Origin: Escherichia coli
GTDB lineage: Bacteria; Pseudomonadota; Gammaproteobacteria; Enterobacterales; Enterobacteriaceae
Assembly: GCF_011045215.1 (NCBI RefSeq)
Contig: NZ_CP049201.1
DNA: 64,000 nucleotides
Strand: one strand, 5' to 3'
The position numbers and the translations under genes are program-made. Positions 29,087-34,745 of the stretch are shown piece by piece; the first letter of the stretch is position 1; every line of letters starts with the position of its first letter. The notes under the pieces are model-generated. The model was not told the origin of the DNA. It was given only the letters and a program-made list of their open reading frames with translations, and did not search any database.

Positions 29087-29596
29087 ATGGCGACGCTGAC
29101 AGAAGATGATGTGCTTGAGCAACTGGATGCACAGGACAATTTATTTTCATTTATGAAAACTGCGCATTCTATTTTGCTCCAGGGAATACGCCAGTTTCTG
29201 CCGTCGCTGTTTGTCGATAACGATGAAGAGATCGTGGAATATGCAGTGAAGCCGTTACTTGCCCAAAGCGGCCCGCTTGACGATATTGATGTTGCGCTGC
29301 GTTTGATTTATGCGCTGGGGAAAATGGATAAATGGCTGTACGCCGATATCACTCATTTTTCCCAGTTCTGGCATTACCTGAACGAACAGGATGAAGCGCC
29401 CGGATTTGCCGATGACATGACCTGGGATTTTATCAGCAACGTCAATAGCATAACCCGCAATGCGATGCTCTATGACGCGTTAAAAGCGATGAAGTTCGCT
29501 GATTTCGCCGTCTGGTCAGAGGCGCGTTTTAGCGGGATGGTCAAAACGGCGCTGACGCTGGCAGTAACGACCACCTTAAAGGAATTAACGCCGTGA
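29087..29596 (+). CDS. yggD: MtlR-like small protein (YggD/FumE)
   Basis: 169 aa, MATLTEDDVLEQLDAQDNLFSFMKTAHSILLQGIRQF. Confidence 0.7.
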   Translation: MATLTEDDVLEQLDAQDNLFSFMKTAHSILLQGIRQFLPSLFVDNDEEIVEYAVKPLLAQSGPLDDIDVALRLIYALGKMDKWLYADITHFSQFWHYLNEQDEAPGFADDMTWDFISNVNSITRNAMLYDALKAMKFADFAVWSEARFSGMVKTALTLAVTTTLKELTP

Positions 29597-30306
29597 AAAT
29601 TGAATTAACGGTGAATGGGCTGAACGTGCAAGCGCAGTACCATGAGGAAGAGATAAAACGCGTGCATAAACCGTTGCTGCGCATGTTGGCGGCCTTACAG
29701 ACGGTAAATCCGCAGCGGCGAACCGTGGTTTTTCTTTGCGCTCCGCCGGGAACGGGAAAATCGACCCTGACTACCTTCTGGGAATATCTCGCGCAACAAG
29801 ACCCCGAACTGCCCGCTATCCAGACGCTCCCGATGGATGGTTTTCACCATTACAATAGCTGGCTGGATGCGCATCAGCTACGCCCGTACAAAGGCGCGCC
29901 GCAGACATTTGATGTGGCAAAACTGGCAGAAAAATTGCGCCAGGCAGTGCAGGGCGACTGTACGTGGCCGCAGTACGATCGACAAAAACATGATCCGGTA
30001 GAAGATGCGTTGCATGTTACCGCACCAATAATCATCGTCGAAGGAAACTGGCTATTGCTGGATGACGAGAAGTGGCGCCAGCTTGCGCAATTTTGTGATT
30101 TCTCGATCTTTATTAACGCGCCCGCAGCGGCGTTGCGGGAGCGTCTGGTGGGGCGCAAGCTGGCGGGAGGGTTATCGCTGGCAGACGCAGAAGCTTTTTA
30201 TGACCGTACCGACGGGCCGAATGTTCGCCGGGTGCTGGAAGAGAGTCTGCCTGCAAATTTGACCTTAATGATGACCGCTACGGGTGAATATCGTCTGGTG
30301 GATTAA
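29593..30306 (+). CDS. yggC: P-loop nucleoside/pantothenate kinase-like protein YggC
   Basis: 237 aa; Walker A APPGTGKST. Confidence 0.8.
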   Translation: MKIELTVNGLNVQAQYHEEEIKRVHKPLLRMLAALQTVNPQRRTVVFLCAPPGTGKSTLTTFWEYLAQQDPELPAIQTLPMDGFHHYNSWLDAHQLRPYKGAPQTFDVAKLAEKLRQAVQGDCTWPQYDRQKHDPVEDALHVTAPIIIVEGNWLLLDDEKWRQLAQFCDFSIFINAPAAALRERLVGRKLAGGLSLADAEAFYDRTDGPNVRRVLEESLPANLTLMMTATGEYRLVD

Positions 30307-30955
30307 TGTTCCTGATTAGACCATCTTCCAGTCGCACCACACGAGAGAAATGACGCCGGGTAAATGCGGCGTCATGACTGATTGCTACGACGCTCGTGCC
30401 TCGCTGGCGGCACTTCTCCAGCCAGCTTTCAAACACGCTCAACCAATTTTCGTCAAAATCCCGACTCGGCTCGTCCAGCAGCAATAGTGGCGGAGAGAGT
30501 GCTTCCAGGCAGGCGACGGCGACCATCCGTCGCTGCGCACTATGCAGATCCAACGGGTGCGCGCTGGCAGTGTCTGCTAACTGACAACATTGCAGGGCAG
30601 CATGGGTACGTTGAGTGATTTCATCCGCCGGGCATTTTTGCAGTTTCAAACCAAATGCGATCTCGTCAGCGACGGTGCTGTGAAAAAGTTGGTTTTCCGC
30701 TTCCTGAAACAGTACGCCAATCTTTGCCGCGCGCTGGCGGTTTTTCAGGTTTTTCATCGCCTGTTGTTGCCGCATAACCGTACCGGCTGTGGGCGTAAGA
30801 AGACCTGCCATTACTCGTAACAGCGTCGATTTCCCTGCGCCATTGTCACCGGTCAGCGCCAACCATTCACCTTGTTTGAGTTGCAGAGAAATGTCGCAAA
30901 GACAATCCGTTGCCGCGCCAGGCCAGCGATAAGATATCTGATTTAACGTTAACAT
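30278..30955 (-). CDS. ABC-type ATPase (EcfA-like) with degenerate signature motif
   Basis: Walker A GDNGAGKST, Walker B LLLLDEP, but signature region reads LHSAQRRM instead of LSGGQ; start chosen at MLTLNQISYRW; 3' end overlaps yggC 3' end by 29 bp. Confidence 0.7.
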   Translation of the reverse strand: MLTLNQISYRWPGAATDCLCDISLQLKQGEWLALTGDNGAGKSTLLRVMAGLLTPTAGTVMRQQQAMKNLKNRQRAAKIGVLFQEAENQLFHSTVADEIAFGLKLQKCPADEITQRTHAALQCCQLADTASAHPLDLHSAQRRMVAVACLEALSPPLLLLDEPSRDFDENWLSVFESWLEKCRQRGTSVVAISHDAAFTRRHFSRVVRLEDGLIRNINPPDDIHP

Positions 30956-31632
30956 AGTGGCTGGAGCGCTCCGTTTTGCAATTGCCACGCTTGCTGGCAG
31001 TAGTTCAGGAAAGGTGTGCGATGACGTTCAAAAAGAATAATCAGCGAACCACGTTCAAACGCCCAGTGTTGTAATCGCTGCAACAGCATTTCGCTGGCCT
31101 GCGGCGTCAGGCGGCTAAAGGCTTCATCAAGAATTAATAGCTTTGGCTGCATCGCGATGGCGCAGGCGATGACCACGCGCTGTGTCTCTCCACCGGAGAG
31201 TGTTGCTGGGTGACGATGGCGCAACGGCTGGCACTCGGTCAGAGTCAGGGCGGCATCAATCCGCGCCATAATCTCTGCTTCAGCAAGACACAGATTTTCT
31301 GGCCCAAAGGCAACTTCTTCTTCCACGCTAAAGGTACAGCCGGAGAGCTGCAAATAGGGCGATTGCTGGACGAGCTGGATGGTGGCGGATTGTTCATTAA
31401 GCGGGAGATGCCCAATGGGCGTACCGAGGAGCGTCCCCGTGCCTGTTATCTCTCCTGGCAGAAAGTCCGGATACCAGCCCGCCATCAGCTGTGCCAGCGT
31501 ACTTTTGCCACTGCCGTTGTCACCAAAGATGGCGACCATCCCCGGTTTGACATAGTGAAAGTTATAACAGAACGGAGGATGCGTTGAGTGTGTCGGGCAA
31601 TAACGGAACTGTTCTAACGTAACCATATCCAC
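30949..31632 (-). CDS. ABC-type ATPase (EcfA-like), canonical motifs
   Basis: Walker A GDNGSGKST, signature LSGGETQRV, Walker B LLILDEA; start uncertain by a few codons. Confidence 0.75.
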   Translation of the reverse strand: MDMVTLEQFRYCPTHSTHPPFCYNFHYVKPGMVAIFGDNGSGKSTLAQLMAGWYPDFLPGEITGTGTLLGTPIGHLPLNEQSATIQLVQQSPYLQLSGCTFSVEEEVAFGPENLCLAEAEIMARIDAALTLTECQPLRHRHPATLSGGETQRVVIACAIAMQPKLLILDEAFSRLTPQASEMLLQRLQHWAFERGSLIILFERHRTPFLNYCQQAWQLQNGALQPLC

Positions 31633-32321
31633 GCTCCGAATTCTGTCAGCATCAGCAAGATCATGGTGTAACGCGCTACGCGTTGTAGGGTGCTATCGGC
31701 TGGTGCCCACAACGTTGTTCGTCGGTTGTGGATCCGAAATGCCCGCATATCCAGCGCCGCACCGCGGACAGCAAGATCGTTTAGCGCATTGTGTGTTAGC
31801 GGAATAATTAACGCGGGCATCGCACGTAAACGCTGATACCAGCCCTCATCCAGCGGCACGCCGCGGGCACGCTGCGCTTCATGAATAATCGCTAATTGCC
31901 GTTTTAACTGCTCAACGACCAATAACGGACCGGCAAACAGATAAGCGACGCCTGGCGGCAGGCGAGAAGCAAACAGAGCGCGGATAAAACATTGCACGGG
32001 GACGTACTGCATCCACAACTGTGAGGTTGAAACAATCGCCAGAATCCGCAACCAGAGCGTAATAGCATGCGTCCAACGCTCCGGCGAACGCGGCGTGCCG
32101 CTTAGCCATTCTGTTAGCCAGCCACCGTGTACCAGCCACAGCCCGGCTCCCAGCGAGAACATCAGCCAGACGACATATTTTGCCCGCCGCCGCGTGGCCT
32201 TTAGCGCAATAAGGCAGAAAAAGGTCGCCGCGCTATAGACTGGCAGTATTGTCTGTGTGGGCAGGATAAGCGTGGTGCAGGCCGCCAATGCCCATAGTGT
32301 TAATGAGGTAAATGGATGCAT
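31614..32321 (-). CDS. ECF transporter T component (EcfT/CbiQ-like)
   Basis: 235-aa multi-TM protein with two Ala-Arg-Gly-type coupling motifs (EAQRARGVP and DLAVRGAAL) in the C-terminal half; directly upstream of two ABC ATPase genes. Confidence 0.65.
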   Translation of the reverse strand: MHPFTSLTLWALAACTTLILPTQTILPVYSAATFFCLIALKATRRRAKYVVWLMFSLGAGLWLVHGGWLTEWLSGTPRSPERWTHAITLWLRILAIVSTSQLWMQYVPVQCFIRALFASRLPPGVAYLFAGPLLVVEQLKRQLAIIHEAQRARGVPLDEGWYQRLRAMPALIIPLTHNALNDLAVRGAALDMRAFRIHNRRTTLWAPADSTLQRVARYTMILLMLTEFGAWIWLR

Positions 32322-32900
32322 TTAGCGCACGGCAGCCATTGCCGGAAAATGGCGCGTGGTGCGAATCGGCAGCTGGCGCAGTAAAAGCCAGACAATCACC
32401 GCTGTAAGAGTTTTATCGACCAGGTTCGCGCCTATCACTGTAATTGCCACCGACTCCACCAGGTTTTGCCCCATCGAGTGCATCCAGGCAACGAACAAAT
32501 CGGCTCCGCTACCGGTGACACCGCCGAACAGCGCAGTACGCAGCGGTACAGCGACGACCGTTACCGCAAGCGTAATAATCACGCCGCTGACAACGACTTT
32601 TGGCAGGGTGCGGAACCAACCCGCTCGCGCCAGCCAACCAGCGACCAGGCCGATGACCATCGCCACGGGCGCAAATGCGGCGGCGATCGGGTCGGTCAGC
32701 AATCCCCAGAGTAAATTGGTCAGTAAGCCGGTCAGCATCCCGATCACCGGACCAAGCAGTACCGCGCTAATAAGTGTGCCGATGGAGTCGAGAAATATAG
32801 GTAATTTGACCATGCTGGCCAGTTGCCCGCCGATCATATTGATGGCGATAGATATAACGATCAACACCAGTGCCTGACTGGAAAAGTGGCTACGCGCCAT
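32322..32900 (-). CDS. Small integral membrane protein, probable ECF substrate-specific (S) component
   Basis: ~192 aa from MARSHFSSQALVLIVISIAIN (ORF-track upstream extension would overlap the PPC gene); 5-6 predicted TM segments; position directly upstream of T component. Confidence 0.5.
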   Translation of the reverse strand: MARSHFSSQALVLIVISIAINMIGGQLASMVKLPIFLDSIGTLISAVLLGPVIGMLTGLLTNLLWGLLTDPIAAAFAPVAMVIGLVAGWLARAGWFRTLPKVVVSGVIITLAVTVVAVPLRTALFGGVTGSGADLFVAWMHSMGQNLVESVAITVIGANLVDKTLTAVIVWLLLRQLPIRTTRHFPAMAAVR

Positions 32901-32922
32901 AAGAAAACCTCTCTGAAAGTAG

Positions 32923-33354
32923 TTATTTAACGGGGGAAATATGCAACTCGTCGTAACCAGAAAGCGCGCAAGGTTGGCGGCTAAACGCCAGTTCCTCAAG
33001 GCTACCGATCACCAGTTCAAGCGTGGTCCGCACGGTACAGCCGGGCATCATATGACCGCCAAGCATCGTGCCGTGTGGATCGGAAACGCAGAGATGAAGA
33101 TGCTCACCACTCTGTTCCAACGTGCCGTTTAGTGAGATCACTTCGAATGTACCGTTCAGGAGCGTGGTGCCTTCTTGCCCGGCATAGCGCAAGGCGATGT
33201 CAGTCAGGCTACCGGTACAGCCTGCAATCCAGGCGGCATGAAGTTGCTGCTGCTGTGCAAAAGCGTGTAGCTGGGAAAAAACTTCCTGCCCGGGGAGGAG
33301 GCGCAGTGCGTAAAAGCGTGCGGAGGAAGAATATGGGTAGGGCAATGTCATCAT
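32923..33354 (-). CDS. PPC/DUF296-domain protein
   Basis: 143 aa; pattern G.FEV.SLNGTL....HLH......G...GGH...GC.V....E.V resembles the PPC (plants-and-prokaryotes conserved, DUF296) fold; first gene of the operon. Confidence 0.6.
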   Translation of the reverse strand: MMTLPYPYSSSARFYALRLLPGQEVFSQLHAFAQQQQLHAAWIAGCTGSLTDIALRYAGQEGTTLLNGTFEVISLNGTLEQSGEHLHLCVSDPHGTMLGGHMMPGCTVRTTLELVIGSLEELAFSRQPCALSGYDELHISPVK

Positions 33355-33588
33355 TGGAGTACTCCGAAACTCGGACGTATTGCGGATAATATCGACGCTG
33401 CATCAGTCATATTCTGATATAAGTCAGGGTTTGTGACGGCACAACGAAAAGATTTTGCTACGCTTATTCGTGATTCTGCAAAGTGGAATAAATTCCACAG
33501 GGGCGGGGCTGAAAACGTGACGTAAGTCAGATATTTGTTTTCTTTGACTGGACAATCATTCCTTTTATTCCACGTTTCGCTTATCCTA

Positions 33589-33603
33589 GCTGAAGCGTTT
33601 CAG
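33589..33603. promoter_or_regulatory. Candidate Cra (FruR)-type operator upstream of epd
   Basis: gctgaagcgtttcag palindrome (TGAA-N6-TTCA core) ~125 bp upstream of epd start. Confidence 0.35.
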
Positions 33604-33725
33604 TCGATTAAATGTTCGACAATTAACCAATCAGTCGCAGTTTGCGACAGGTAAGGTTTCCCCGGACGATTTGCTGGATTACTCTGTCTGGCAAATTTGC
33701 TCAGGGAAAACCTTGCAGGAGATCT

Positions 33726-34745
33726 ATGACCGTACGCGTAGCGATAAATGGCTTCGGTCGCATCGGGCGTAATGTGGTTCGTGCTTTGTATGAATCCGGA
33801 CGCCGGGCGGAAATTACCGTGGTGGCAATCAACGAACTGGCGGATGCTGCGGGCATGGCGCATTTGTTGAAATATGACACCAGCCATGGCCGTTTTGCAT
33901 GGGAAGTACGACAGGAACGCGATCAACTTTTTGTTGGTGATGACGCCATCCGCGTATTGCATGAACGTTCACTGCAATCGCTCCCCTGGCGTGAACTTGG
34001 CGTTGATGTAGTCCTCGACTGCACCGGCGTATATGGCTCCCGCGAGCATGGCGAAGCGCATATTGCCGCCGGGGCCAAAAAAGTGCTCTTTTCACATCCT
34101 GGCAGTAACGATCTCGACGCGACCGTTGTTTACGGCGTCAATCAGGATCAACTTCGTGCGGAACACCGCATCGTTTCTAACGCTTCCTGTACCACGAATT
34201 GCATAATTCCCGTCATCAAATTGTTAGATGATGCGTACGGTATTGAGTCCGGCACTGTGACCACAATTCACTCCGCCATGCACGATCAACAGGTTATTGA
34301 TGCATACCATCCTGACCTGCGTCGCACCCGGGCAGCCAGCCAGTCGATCATTCCGGTCGATACTAAACTGGCCGCCGGTATCACACGATTTTTTCCGCAA
34401 TTTAACGATCGCTTTGAAGCGATTGCGGTACGTGTGCCAACCATAAATGTGACGGCAATCGATTTAAGCGTGACGGTGAAGAAACCTGTAAAAGCCAATG
34501 AAGTCAACCTGTTGCTGCAAAAAGCAGCACAAGGTGCATTTCATGGTATAGTTGACTATACGGAATTGCCGTTGGTCTCTGTAGATTTTAACCACGATCC
34601 ACACAGTGCCATTGTCGATGGCACCCAAACCCGGGTCAGTGGCGCACACCTGATCAAAACGTTGGTCTGGTGCGATAACGAATGGGGCTTTGCTAACCGA
34701 ATGCTCGACACGACGTTAGCTATGGCTACTGTTGCTTTCAGGTAA
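33726..34745 (+). CDS. epd: D-erythrose-4-phosphate dehydrogenase
   Basis: Start at [27 protein letters not shown] (339 aa); GAPDH family with active-site SNASCTTNC. Confidence 0.93.

Follow-up and report, generated by a model that had tools for sequence, protein, structure and literature searches.

A conserved ECF-type transporter operon of Escherichia coli whose two ATPases are predicted to form one consensus and one degenerate ATP site

A 64,000-nucleotide stretch of the Escherichia coli chromosome (assembly GCF_011045215.1, contig NZ_CP049201.1), referred to in the following as the window, carries a five-gene operon on the minus strand between yggC and epd. The operon encodes a PCC-domain protein, the S and T components of an energy-coupling factor (ECF) transporter and two ATP-binding cassette (ABC) ATPases, here called A1 and A2. 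We consider it probable that this PCC-S-T-A1-A2 operon encodes a group I ECF importer in which A1 and A2 form a heterodimer with one hydrolytic ATP site (site 2) and one degenerate site (site 1). A first-pass annotation made from the DNA letters had predicted a heterodimer with one consensus and one degenerate site from the unusual signature of A2. That prediction gained support from an Arg in the place of the switch His in A1, from the consensus make-up of site 2 and from natural fusions of the two proteins, while the loss of catalysis is still predicted from sequence.

The same annotation had placed the motif LHSAQRRM at the C-loop position of A2, where ABC ATPases have LSGGQ, and had described the Walker A (GDNGAGKST) and Walker B (LLLLDEP) motifs of A2 as intact. 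Both statements held. When A2 was compared with all PDB chains by phmmer, the stretch lhsaqrrmvava aligned without gaps to lsggqkqriaia of ABCB4 and ABCB1. The AlphaFold model of A2 had the fold of a nucleotide-binding domain (NBD), with a predicted local distance difference test score (pLDDT) of 90.9, and a helix started at residue 139; in the A1 model, a helix (residues 145-158) likewise began with the first Gly of LSGGE. No canonical LSGGQ was found elsewhere in A2, and the coordinates given for the gene coincide exactly with the coding sequence annotated by PGAP (Table 1). The upstream ATPase, A1, has the canonical signature ascribed to it (LSGGETQR), along with GDNGSGKST and LLILDE.

A1 is nevertheless not fully canonical, which goes beyond the earlier picture of the pair. 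In a MAFFT alignment with ECF-type relatives, Arg201 of A1 occupied the column of the switch His, with Glu200 at the usual Thr/Ser position. The F-E-R triplet was invariant both in the orthologue alignment and in 120 orthologues. The residue after the Arg varied (N in 32, H in 8, K in 5, and otherwise T, D, R or S, among 59 loci), so that conservation does not extend to the His202 found in E. coli. In the models, the strand leading to the H-loop started at residue 188 in A2 and at residue 195 in A1; six residues on from these starts lie H194 and R201, respectively. The register used here for the A1 H-loop was taken from the MAFFT alignment with ECF relatives, the conservation in the family and the strand register of the models. 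A register based on HMMER alignments to ABCB1 and ABCB4 was rejected as ambiguous, as it required gaps of 2-3 residues and had low confidence. No alignment register gave A1 a conserved H-loop His. In MalK, changing the switch His from H to R reportedly nearly abolishes ATPase activity.

The two ATPases also differ in the Q-helix. In ECF ATPases, the Q-loop is followed by the motif x-P-D/E-x-Q-hydrophobic (PMC6828968), which serves in docking on T and of which A2 has the acidic residue and the Gln. In A1 the corresponding stretch is SPYLQL (within VQQSPYLQL), with Tyr in place of the acidic residue, and this position is Y, Q, A or W in the family. Both proteins have an aromatic residue at the A-loop position (FRY in A1, ISY in A2). 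As a separate observation, the pLDDT fell below 50 at A1 residues 94-108 (31303-31347), a stretch covering the Q-helix and the first part of the helical subdomain. This segment, which is expected to make the contact with a coupling helix of T, has two inserted residues (QLSGCTF) and is without the acidic residue that is usual there.

An ATP bound in an ABC dimer is contacted by both subunits: one NBD supplies the Walker A and B motifs, the Q-loop and the H-loop, and its partner supplies the signature. This is also seen in the closed ECF module, where the signature that contacts each ATP comes from the subunit across the interface (PMC10368641). By this composite-site rule, the H-loop defect of A1 and the signature defect of A2 fall in the same site, site 1. 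This site is made up of the Walker A and B motifs and Q-loop of A1, the Arg that replaces its switch His, and LHSAQ of A2. Site 2 combines the Walker A and B motifs, Q-loop and switch His of A2 with LSGGE of A1, and every residue in it is the consensus residue. The residues that bind Mg-ATP are retained in site 1, namely the aromatic A-loop residue, the Walker A Lys, the Walker B Asp-Glu and the Q-loop Gln; missing are two elements needed for efficient hydrolysis, the consensus signature and the switch His. The conservation of the A1 Walker A, Walker B and Q-loop motifs in 59-60 of 60 related loci, described below, suggests that ATP binding at site 1 is kept. From these motifs we infer that site 1 has probably lost hydrolysis and still retains ATP. 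The dimer itself would have the head-to-tail geometry generally known from ABC proteins. In TAP1/TAP2 and the ABCC proteins, an H-loop or Walker B defect in one NBD is likewise accompanied by a signature of the LAAGQ, LSVGQ or LSHGH type in the other.

The deviations in both proteins were conserved among related loci. The 120 closest A2 homologues came from Escherichia, Salmonella, Citrobacter, Klebsiella, Atlantibacter and others, at 67-97% identity, and all 115 full-length sequences with a readable motif had L-H-[T/S/A]-A-Q-R-R-M in the C-loop, with Walker A, DEPSRDFD and ISHD unchanged. A wider set was obtained by scanning one genome per species (GTDB r220) with a profile of the S component, which yielded 59 loci from Enterobacteriaceae, Morganellaceae, one Rhizobium and one betaproteobacterial metagenome-assembled genome. 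Together with three metagenome loci, this gave 60 loci with both ATPases; denominators below 60 count the readable motifs. The A1 signature was LSGGE in 60/60 loci. In A2, LSGG was found in 0/58; the motif was mostly LH[T/A/V/S][A/G]Q, and the C-loop pattern of the family was L-[H/N/D/Y/S]-x-[A/G]-[Q/E]-R-R-M. The switch-His column contained Arg in 56 of 59 A1 proteins and His in all 58 A2 proteins. The Walker A Lys was present in 60/60 proteins of either kind, the Walker B Asp-Glu in 59/59 A1 and 58/58 A2, and the Q-loop Gln of A1 was conserved across the loci. The last residue of the D-loop was Thr in 55 A1 proteins and Asp in 1, and it was Asp in 58/58 A2 proteins. The distant Rhizobium locus kept the same pattern with other residues (LSAAE in A2, and an A1 H-loop without His). 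Judged by these alignments, the deviation of the A2 C-loop is a conserved feature and no strain-specific accident.

The pairing of A1 with A2 is supported by natural fusions, which were found in a search for the nearest relatives in a library of 1.84 billion protein representatives. The protein P0123 (503 aa) is an A1-A2 fusion, encoded after genes for PCC, S and T. Its N-terminal domain resembles A1 (LSGGEAQR, DEAFSRLS, YFERHL) and its C-terminal domain resembles A2 (LHAGQRRM, DEPSRDFD, AISHDM). Two metagenomic proteins, P0135 (683 aa) and P0144 (652 aa; L003 5001-6959), are T-A1-A2 triple fusions. Their first ≈200 residues matched the E. coli T component at E ~1e-37, the motif pattern of the ATPases was kept, and the P0144 locus begins with PCC and S genes. 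The fusions fix the order of the subunits and a 1:1:1 stoichiometry, and so argue against homodimers. As the natural fusions show at the level of protein sequence, A1 and A2 would work as one heterodimer.

The next circle of relatives consists of proteins with two NBDs in one chain. A2 matched the C-terminal NBD of these proteins, and A1 resembled the N-terminal NBD, including an insertion after Walker A. Among the best 150 representatives of 50%-identity clusters, drawn by similarity to A2, 141 were two-NBD proteins. The signature was non-canonical in the C-terminal NBD of 111 of them (LSRGQ, LTRGE, LGKGE, LHLSQ and others) and canonical in the N-terminal NBD of 126. A catalytic residue was lost in 34/141, in every case from the N-terminal NBD (switch His in about 30, Walker B Glu in 14, Walker A Lys in 4), and in 0/141 from the C-terminal NBD. 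A degenerate C-terminal signature was also present in 33 of these 34 proteins (Fisher p = 0.0015). Counted per site, site 1 deviated in 112 of the 141 proteins and site 2 in 15. The two-NBD members that we looked up adjoin genes for S (PF12822/PF07155) and T (CbiQ) components, and their best NCBIfam models are ECF ATPase families. Going by these motifs, a degenerate site 1 is the majority state in the clade of these genes, as sampled by similarity to A2. The first-pass annotation had called such asymmetry unusual for ECF A/A' pairs; this is correct for the structurally studied group II EcfA/EcfA' and for CbiO, but not for the clade to which A1 and A2 belong.

Several points weigh against a single hydrolytic site. 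Calling site 1 "degenerate" relies on its motifs. The catalytic Glu of Walker B is still present in A1, which makes some hydrolysis at site 1 possible, and His202 of the E. coli protein, next to Arg201, could in principle reach the γ-phosphate. The HMMER alignments to the distant ABCB1 place the H-loop region of A1 ambiguously. The A1 D-loop, which lacks the Asp, adjoins the consensus site and fits poorly with all defects lying in one site. The A1 model is of low confidence (residues 94-108) in the very Q-helix region expected to contact T, and the 141 proteins, picked by their similarity to A2, are not an unbiased census. In an alternative reading, both sites are active, with the A2 signature and the Arg (or His202) tolerated and two ATP used per cycle, as in a canonical ECF transporter. 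In favor of it, A1 retains the Lys of Walker A, the Asp-Glu of Walker B and the Gln of the Q-loop in all loci, Escherichia has a His directly after Arg201, and the strong conservation of L-H-x-A/G-Q-R-R-M in A2 indicates constraint and not decay. However, a His follows the Arg in 8 of the 59 loci, the others having N, K, T, D, R or S, and in ABC ATPases it is the switch His and the signature residues that contact the γ-phosphate or the attacking water. The excess of deviations at site 1 over site 2 in the clade (112 against 15) also speaks against two active sites, and the loss of the Walker B Glu or Walker A Lys from the N-terminal NBD alone points to a relaxed catalytic constraint on one site. 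We consider activity at both sites unlikely, though it deserves to be taken seriously.

Going the other way, site 1 might bind no nucleotide, in which case A1 would be structural, holding a coupling helix of T, and a single ATP would be used at site 2. A1 does deviate at the H-loop, the D-loop and the acidic residue of the Q-helix (SPYLQL instead of xP[D/E]xQ), and part of its helical subdomain was modelled with low confidence. This reading is nevertheless improbable: in 59-60 of 60 loci, A1 keeps Walker A (GxNGSGKS[T]), the DE of Walker B and the Gln of the Q-loop, and the A-loop residue is aromatic in both proteins. It is more improbable still that A1 and A2 are not partners and instead form homodimers or serve different transporters, so that no mixed site arises. 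Homodimeric A components do occur in other group I systems, such as CbiO (5X3X/5X40), but relatives fuse A1-A2 (P0123) or T-A1-A2 (P0135, P0144) in the same order, the A1 and A2 genes overlap by 7 nt and always co-occur, and pairing each protein with itself would give an A2 dimer with a degenerate signature at both sites and an A1 dimer lacking any switch His. Finally, the deviating C-loop could belong to a decaying, non-functional gene in an accessory island. About 39% of complete E. coli genomes, K-12 among them, lack the island, and some A2 sequence clusters are truncated; yet the A2 frame is intact and annotated as a coding sequence with all other motifs in place, the motif is kept across Enterobacteriaceae, Morganellaceae and metagenome loci at 53-97% protein identity, and the full-length A2 clusters contain thousands of sequences. 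We therefore find decay hardly credible, and a reading of A2 as a pseudogene was ruled out by this conservation.

In the reading that we favor, the operon encodes a dedicated group I ECF-type importer for a small nutrient, in which A1 and A2 would pair obligatorily, in a 1:1 ratio, and sit as a heterodimer on the two coupling helices of T. Binding of ATP at both sites would close the dimer and move the coupling helices. Hydrolysis would then occur at site 2 alone and drive the cycle, and site 1 would most likely hold its ATP over many cycles and thereby keep the dimer pre-assembled, in the manner of a hinge or an allosteric site, like the degenerate site of heterodimeric ABC exporters. Transport would presumably be in the direction of import. 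The canonical ECF-FolT2 under turnover was found with ATP on EcfA and ADP on EcfA' (PMC10368641); with the contacts of the closed state described above, this indicates that functional asymmetry and composite sites are already present in ECF motors.

The assignment to the ECF importers agrees with the gene content, which includes a membrane S component, a T component with two Arg motifs and two ABC ATPases, with no gene for an extracytoplasmic solute-binding protein in the operon. As is typical of group I, the S gene lies in the same operon as the T and A genes. Both ATPase models show an ordinary NBD fold, and structure comparison matched A1 best to ECF and CbiO ATPases. The term "EcfA-like" used in the first-pass annotation proved loose. 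Although the best-scoring NCBIfam families for the two proteins were EcfA1/EcfA2 (TIGR04520/TIGR04521), the scores were far below the cut-offs (147 against 330 for A2, 120.6 against 315 for A1). Both ATPases also end 4-9 residues past the NBD core, without the C-terminal helical dimerization domain of about 55 residues: A2 residues 2-216 aligned to residues 6-220 of the 279-residue 4HUQ_B, and A1 profile positions 2-221 aligned to 6-218. Relatives of the Morganellaceae type (Proteus/Providencia) keep a C-terminal extension of about 50 residues. A mapping of A1 to EcfA and of A2 to EcfA' was favored by the best NCBIfam stretches and the order in the fusions, but the phmmer scores against the PDB did not discriminate, and this weakly supported mapping was not used. 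With regard to the degenerate site, the pair has a non-consensus signature in A2, a non-consensus residue for the switch His in A1 and a second site of consensus make-up. Of the two catalytic losses usual in such dimers, A1 shows that of the switch His and retains the Walker B Glu.

The group II EcfA/EcfA'-EcfT modules (L. brevis 4HUQ/4RFS; L. delbrueckii 5JSZ/7NNU/8BMS; T. maritima EcfA-A' 4HLU/4ZIR) have the same NBD fold and were among the best matches in sequence and in structure. They likewise place two different ATPases on one T with Arg coupling helices and have a membrane S component. In the EcfA/EcfA' proteins that have been studied, the catalytic motifs other than the signature are canonical. 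Unlike A1 and A2, EcfA and EcfA' are described as having LSGGQ in the opposite ATPase at both sites (PMC10368641). The E. coli system differs further in its 225-residue ATPases without a C-terminal domain and in its dedicated S gene within the operon. The homodimeric A components of group I (CbiO of CbiMNQO, 5X3X/5X40; BioM; NikO) also have S, T and A genes in one operon, but there the single A gene leads to a symmetric dimer with two identical consensus sites.

The nearest relatives of A1 and A2 are the fused two-domain ATPases of group I, which have the architecture of Bacillus subtilis YkoD in YkoEDC (PMC5037267). Most of them share the one-sided degeneracy and adjoin S and T genes, a likeness that is drawn from cluster representatives. 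The E. coli system differs in having two separate genes, and L-H-x-A-Q and F-E-R are peculiar to the PCC-linked subfamily. The arrangement of the fused ECF ATPases, with the catalytic defect in the N-terminal and the signature defect in the C-terminal NBD, mirrors that of ABCC proteins. The layout of A1-A2 is that of the heterodimeric exporters (TM287/288, TAP1/TAP2, BmrCD, MsRv1273c/72c, CFTR and other ABCC proteins). In heterodimeric exporters, the catalytic defects of one NBD and the signature defect of the other fall in the same site and the second site is consensus (PMC3971661; PMC12038006). The fold is different, however, being that of a type IV exporter as opposed to a type III/ECF importer, and many of the exporters lose the Walker B Glu that A1 keeps; the resemblance is convergent, with homology at the level of the NBD fold only. 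The fused NBDs of binding-protein-dependent importers of the RbsA/NupO type (PMC11466899) also have two NBDs per chain, one signature far from LSGGQ and one site that is incompetent by sequence. They belong to another class of importer, and their degenerate site has also lost the Walker A Lys and Walker B residues that are kept here.

The coordinates of the operon genes and their motifs are collected in Table 1. Gene names and coding sequences were taken from the RefSeq/PGAP annotation of a 99.5%-identical E. coli genome, and the Pfam and NCBIfam results agreed with the PGAP names of the operon genes. The first gene is named "PPC domain-containing DNA-binding protein" by PGAP, and the Salmonella orthologue of its product has structures solved by structural genomics, 2HX0/2NMU (E 7e-75). 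PGAP names the product of the second gene "ECF transporter S component". The T protein scored 21.4 bits against Pfam CbiQ, under the cut-off of 25, and it is therefore placed among the ECF T components by its motifs, its PGAP name and its gene context; its two Arg motifs are kept in the T domains of the fusion relatives (EAQxARG, RSAALDM). From S to A2, no gap separates the genes, which abut or overlap; the overlap is 13 nt between the T stop and the A1 start and 7 nt between the A1 stop and the A2 start. The A1 open reading frame would also permit a GTG start at 31632. The order PCC-S-T-A1-A2 is kept in about 58 of 62 loci.

Table 1. Operon genes and ATPase motifs in the window, in operon order.
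Feature	Position	Strand	Length or residues	Motif or annotation
PCC/PPC (DUF296) domain protein, operon gene 1	32923-33354	minus	143 aa	Pfam PF03479, E 3.5e-28
ECF S (substrate-capture) component	32322-32900	minus	192 aa	Pfam PF12822, 33.2 bits (cut-off 30.7)
ECF T (scaffold) component	31614-32321	minus	235 aa	PGAP annotation
T coupling-helix Arg motif	31860-31880	minus		EAQRARG
T coupling-helix Arg motif	31752-31775	minus		LAVRGAAL
ATPase A1	30949-31626	minus	225 aa	Pfam ABC_tran, E 1.9e-21; PGAP coding sequence
A1 Walker A	31498-31524	minus	35-43	GDNGSGKST
A1 signature	31186-31200	minus	143-147	LSGGE, consensus
A1 Walker B and D-loop	31105-31140	minus		LLILDE and AFSRLT; catalytic Glu kept, D-loop Asp replaced by Thr
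A1 H-loop	31021-31035 (Arg201 31024-31026)	minus	198-202	LFERH; Arg201 in switch-His column
ATPase A2	30278-30955	minus	225 aa	Pfam ABC_tran, E 7.1e-27; PGAP "ABC transporter ATP-binding protein"
A2 Walker A	30824-30850	minus	36-44	GDNGAGKST
A2 Q-loop/Q-helix			83-90	FQEAENQL
A2 signature	30524-30547 (LHSAQ 30533-30547)	minus	137-144	LHSAQRRM, degenerate
A2 Walker B and D-loop	30452-30487	minus	157-162 and 163-168	LLLLDE and PSRDFD; Glu and D-loop Asp kept
A2 H-loop	30371-30385 (H194 30374-30376)	minus	191-195	AISHD, consensus

The operon forms an island (window 30278-33354, ≈3.1 kb) that is a presence/absence polymorphism in E. coli. A 3.6-kb query was covered to at least 80% in 3318 of 5426 complete E. 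coli genomes; in K-12, which is without the island, the gap between yggC and epd is 285 bp (L007 2425-2710). The neighboring yggC, a gene of the nucleoside/nucleotide-kinase family on the plus strand (29593-30306), overlaps the A2 gene convergently by 29 nt at the 3' ends (30278-30306). Compared with its K-12 counterpart (L007 1712-2425), yggC of the window strain was ≈95% identical over the first two thirds and ≈65% identical over the last ≈230 nt. This drop in identity places the boundary of the island polymorphism inside yggC and marks the 3' ends as old divergent alleles. A search of 29500-34000 against Rfam at E <= 1 matched no riboswitch or other RNA element. In 30100-33750, scans for promoters and terminators gave sites no commoner than in shuffled sequence, and none in the intergenic region between PCC and epd.

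The search for a substrate gave leads but no assignment. The best NCBIfam match of the S component, the model of the CD3073-family putative S component, scored 134.9 bits, under its cut-off of 180; sequence searches found no solved relative of the S component. One public source names a Providencia orthologue (P0507) [quoted passage not shown] (QrtT), and the QrtT/QueT transporters share Pfam PF12822 (PMC11130926). An assignment to queuosine precursors was not adopted, as there was no preQ1 riboswitch among the Rfam results for 29500-34000 and no que gene nearby, the neighbors being yggC and epd; it is kept as a lead only. In two unrelated metagenome loci, genes for a TAXI-type TRAP transporter (an NMT1_3 binding protein and a fused DctM permease) adjoin the PCC-ECF operon (L003 889-3735, L006 6782-9796), and this neighborhood may hint at a shared class of substrate. 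The PCC/DUF296 gene stands first and directly upstream of S in about 60 loci, from Enterobacterales to Rhizobium (e.g., L002 919-1383, L003 3732-4190, L006 2387-2815).

The literature searched mentioned no soluble protein as a conserved partner of an ECF importer, and it contained nothing useful on this operon under the Salmonella STM307x locus tags, 2HX0 or CD3073. A degenerate site was described there for exporters and for RbsA/NupO and for no ECF ATPase; this search was limited and is no proof that such a site is unpublished. What we describe is a combination of two known kinds, an ECF importer and a degenerate-site ABC dimer. A bolder proposal, which we regard as speculative but worth stating, is that a large clade of dedicated ECF transporters has evolved an exporter-like solution, in which site 1 would be a permanently occupied, non-hydrolytic hinge and one ATP would be spent per toppling cycle, and that in the enterobacterial subfamily a PCC/DUF296 protein would be an obligate partner in the cytoplasm, receiving the imported substrate or processing it. 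The clade in question includes the system of most E. coli, Salmonella, Citrobacter, Proteus and Providencia. If this is true, the PCC partner would be a component never described for ECF transporters.

The number of ATP used per ECF cycle and the division of labor between the two ATPases are unsettled, the sole hints being the asymmetric nucleotide occupancy seen by cryo-electron microscopy in a canonical complex. A naturally one-sided ECF motor would offer a ready-made test system in tractable hosts (non-K-12 E. coli and Salmonella), and one that exists in split, A1-A2 fused and T-A1-A2 fused versions; the single-chain T-A1-A2 module could be convenient for structural work. The motif counts across the clade suggest that dedicated ECF transporters whose two NBDs differ may as a rule hydrolyze ATP at a single site, in which case mechanistic models based on group II would generalize differently. 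This is relevant because ECF transporters are pursued as antibiotic targets, and the analysis flags an uncharacterized importer with a conserved PCC-domain partner in major enteric pathogens. The system would be of value mainly as a natural test case, open to genetics, for the ATP stoichiometry of ECF transporters.

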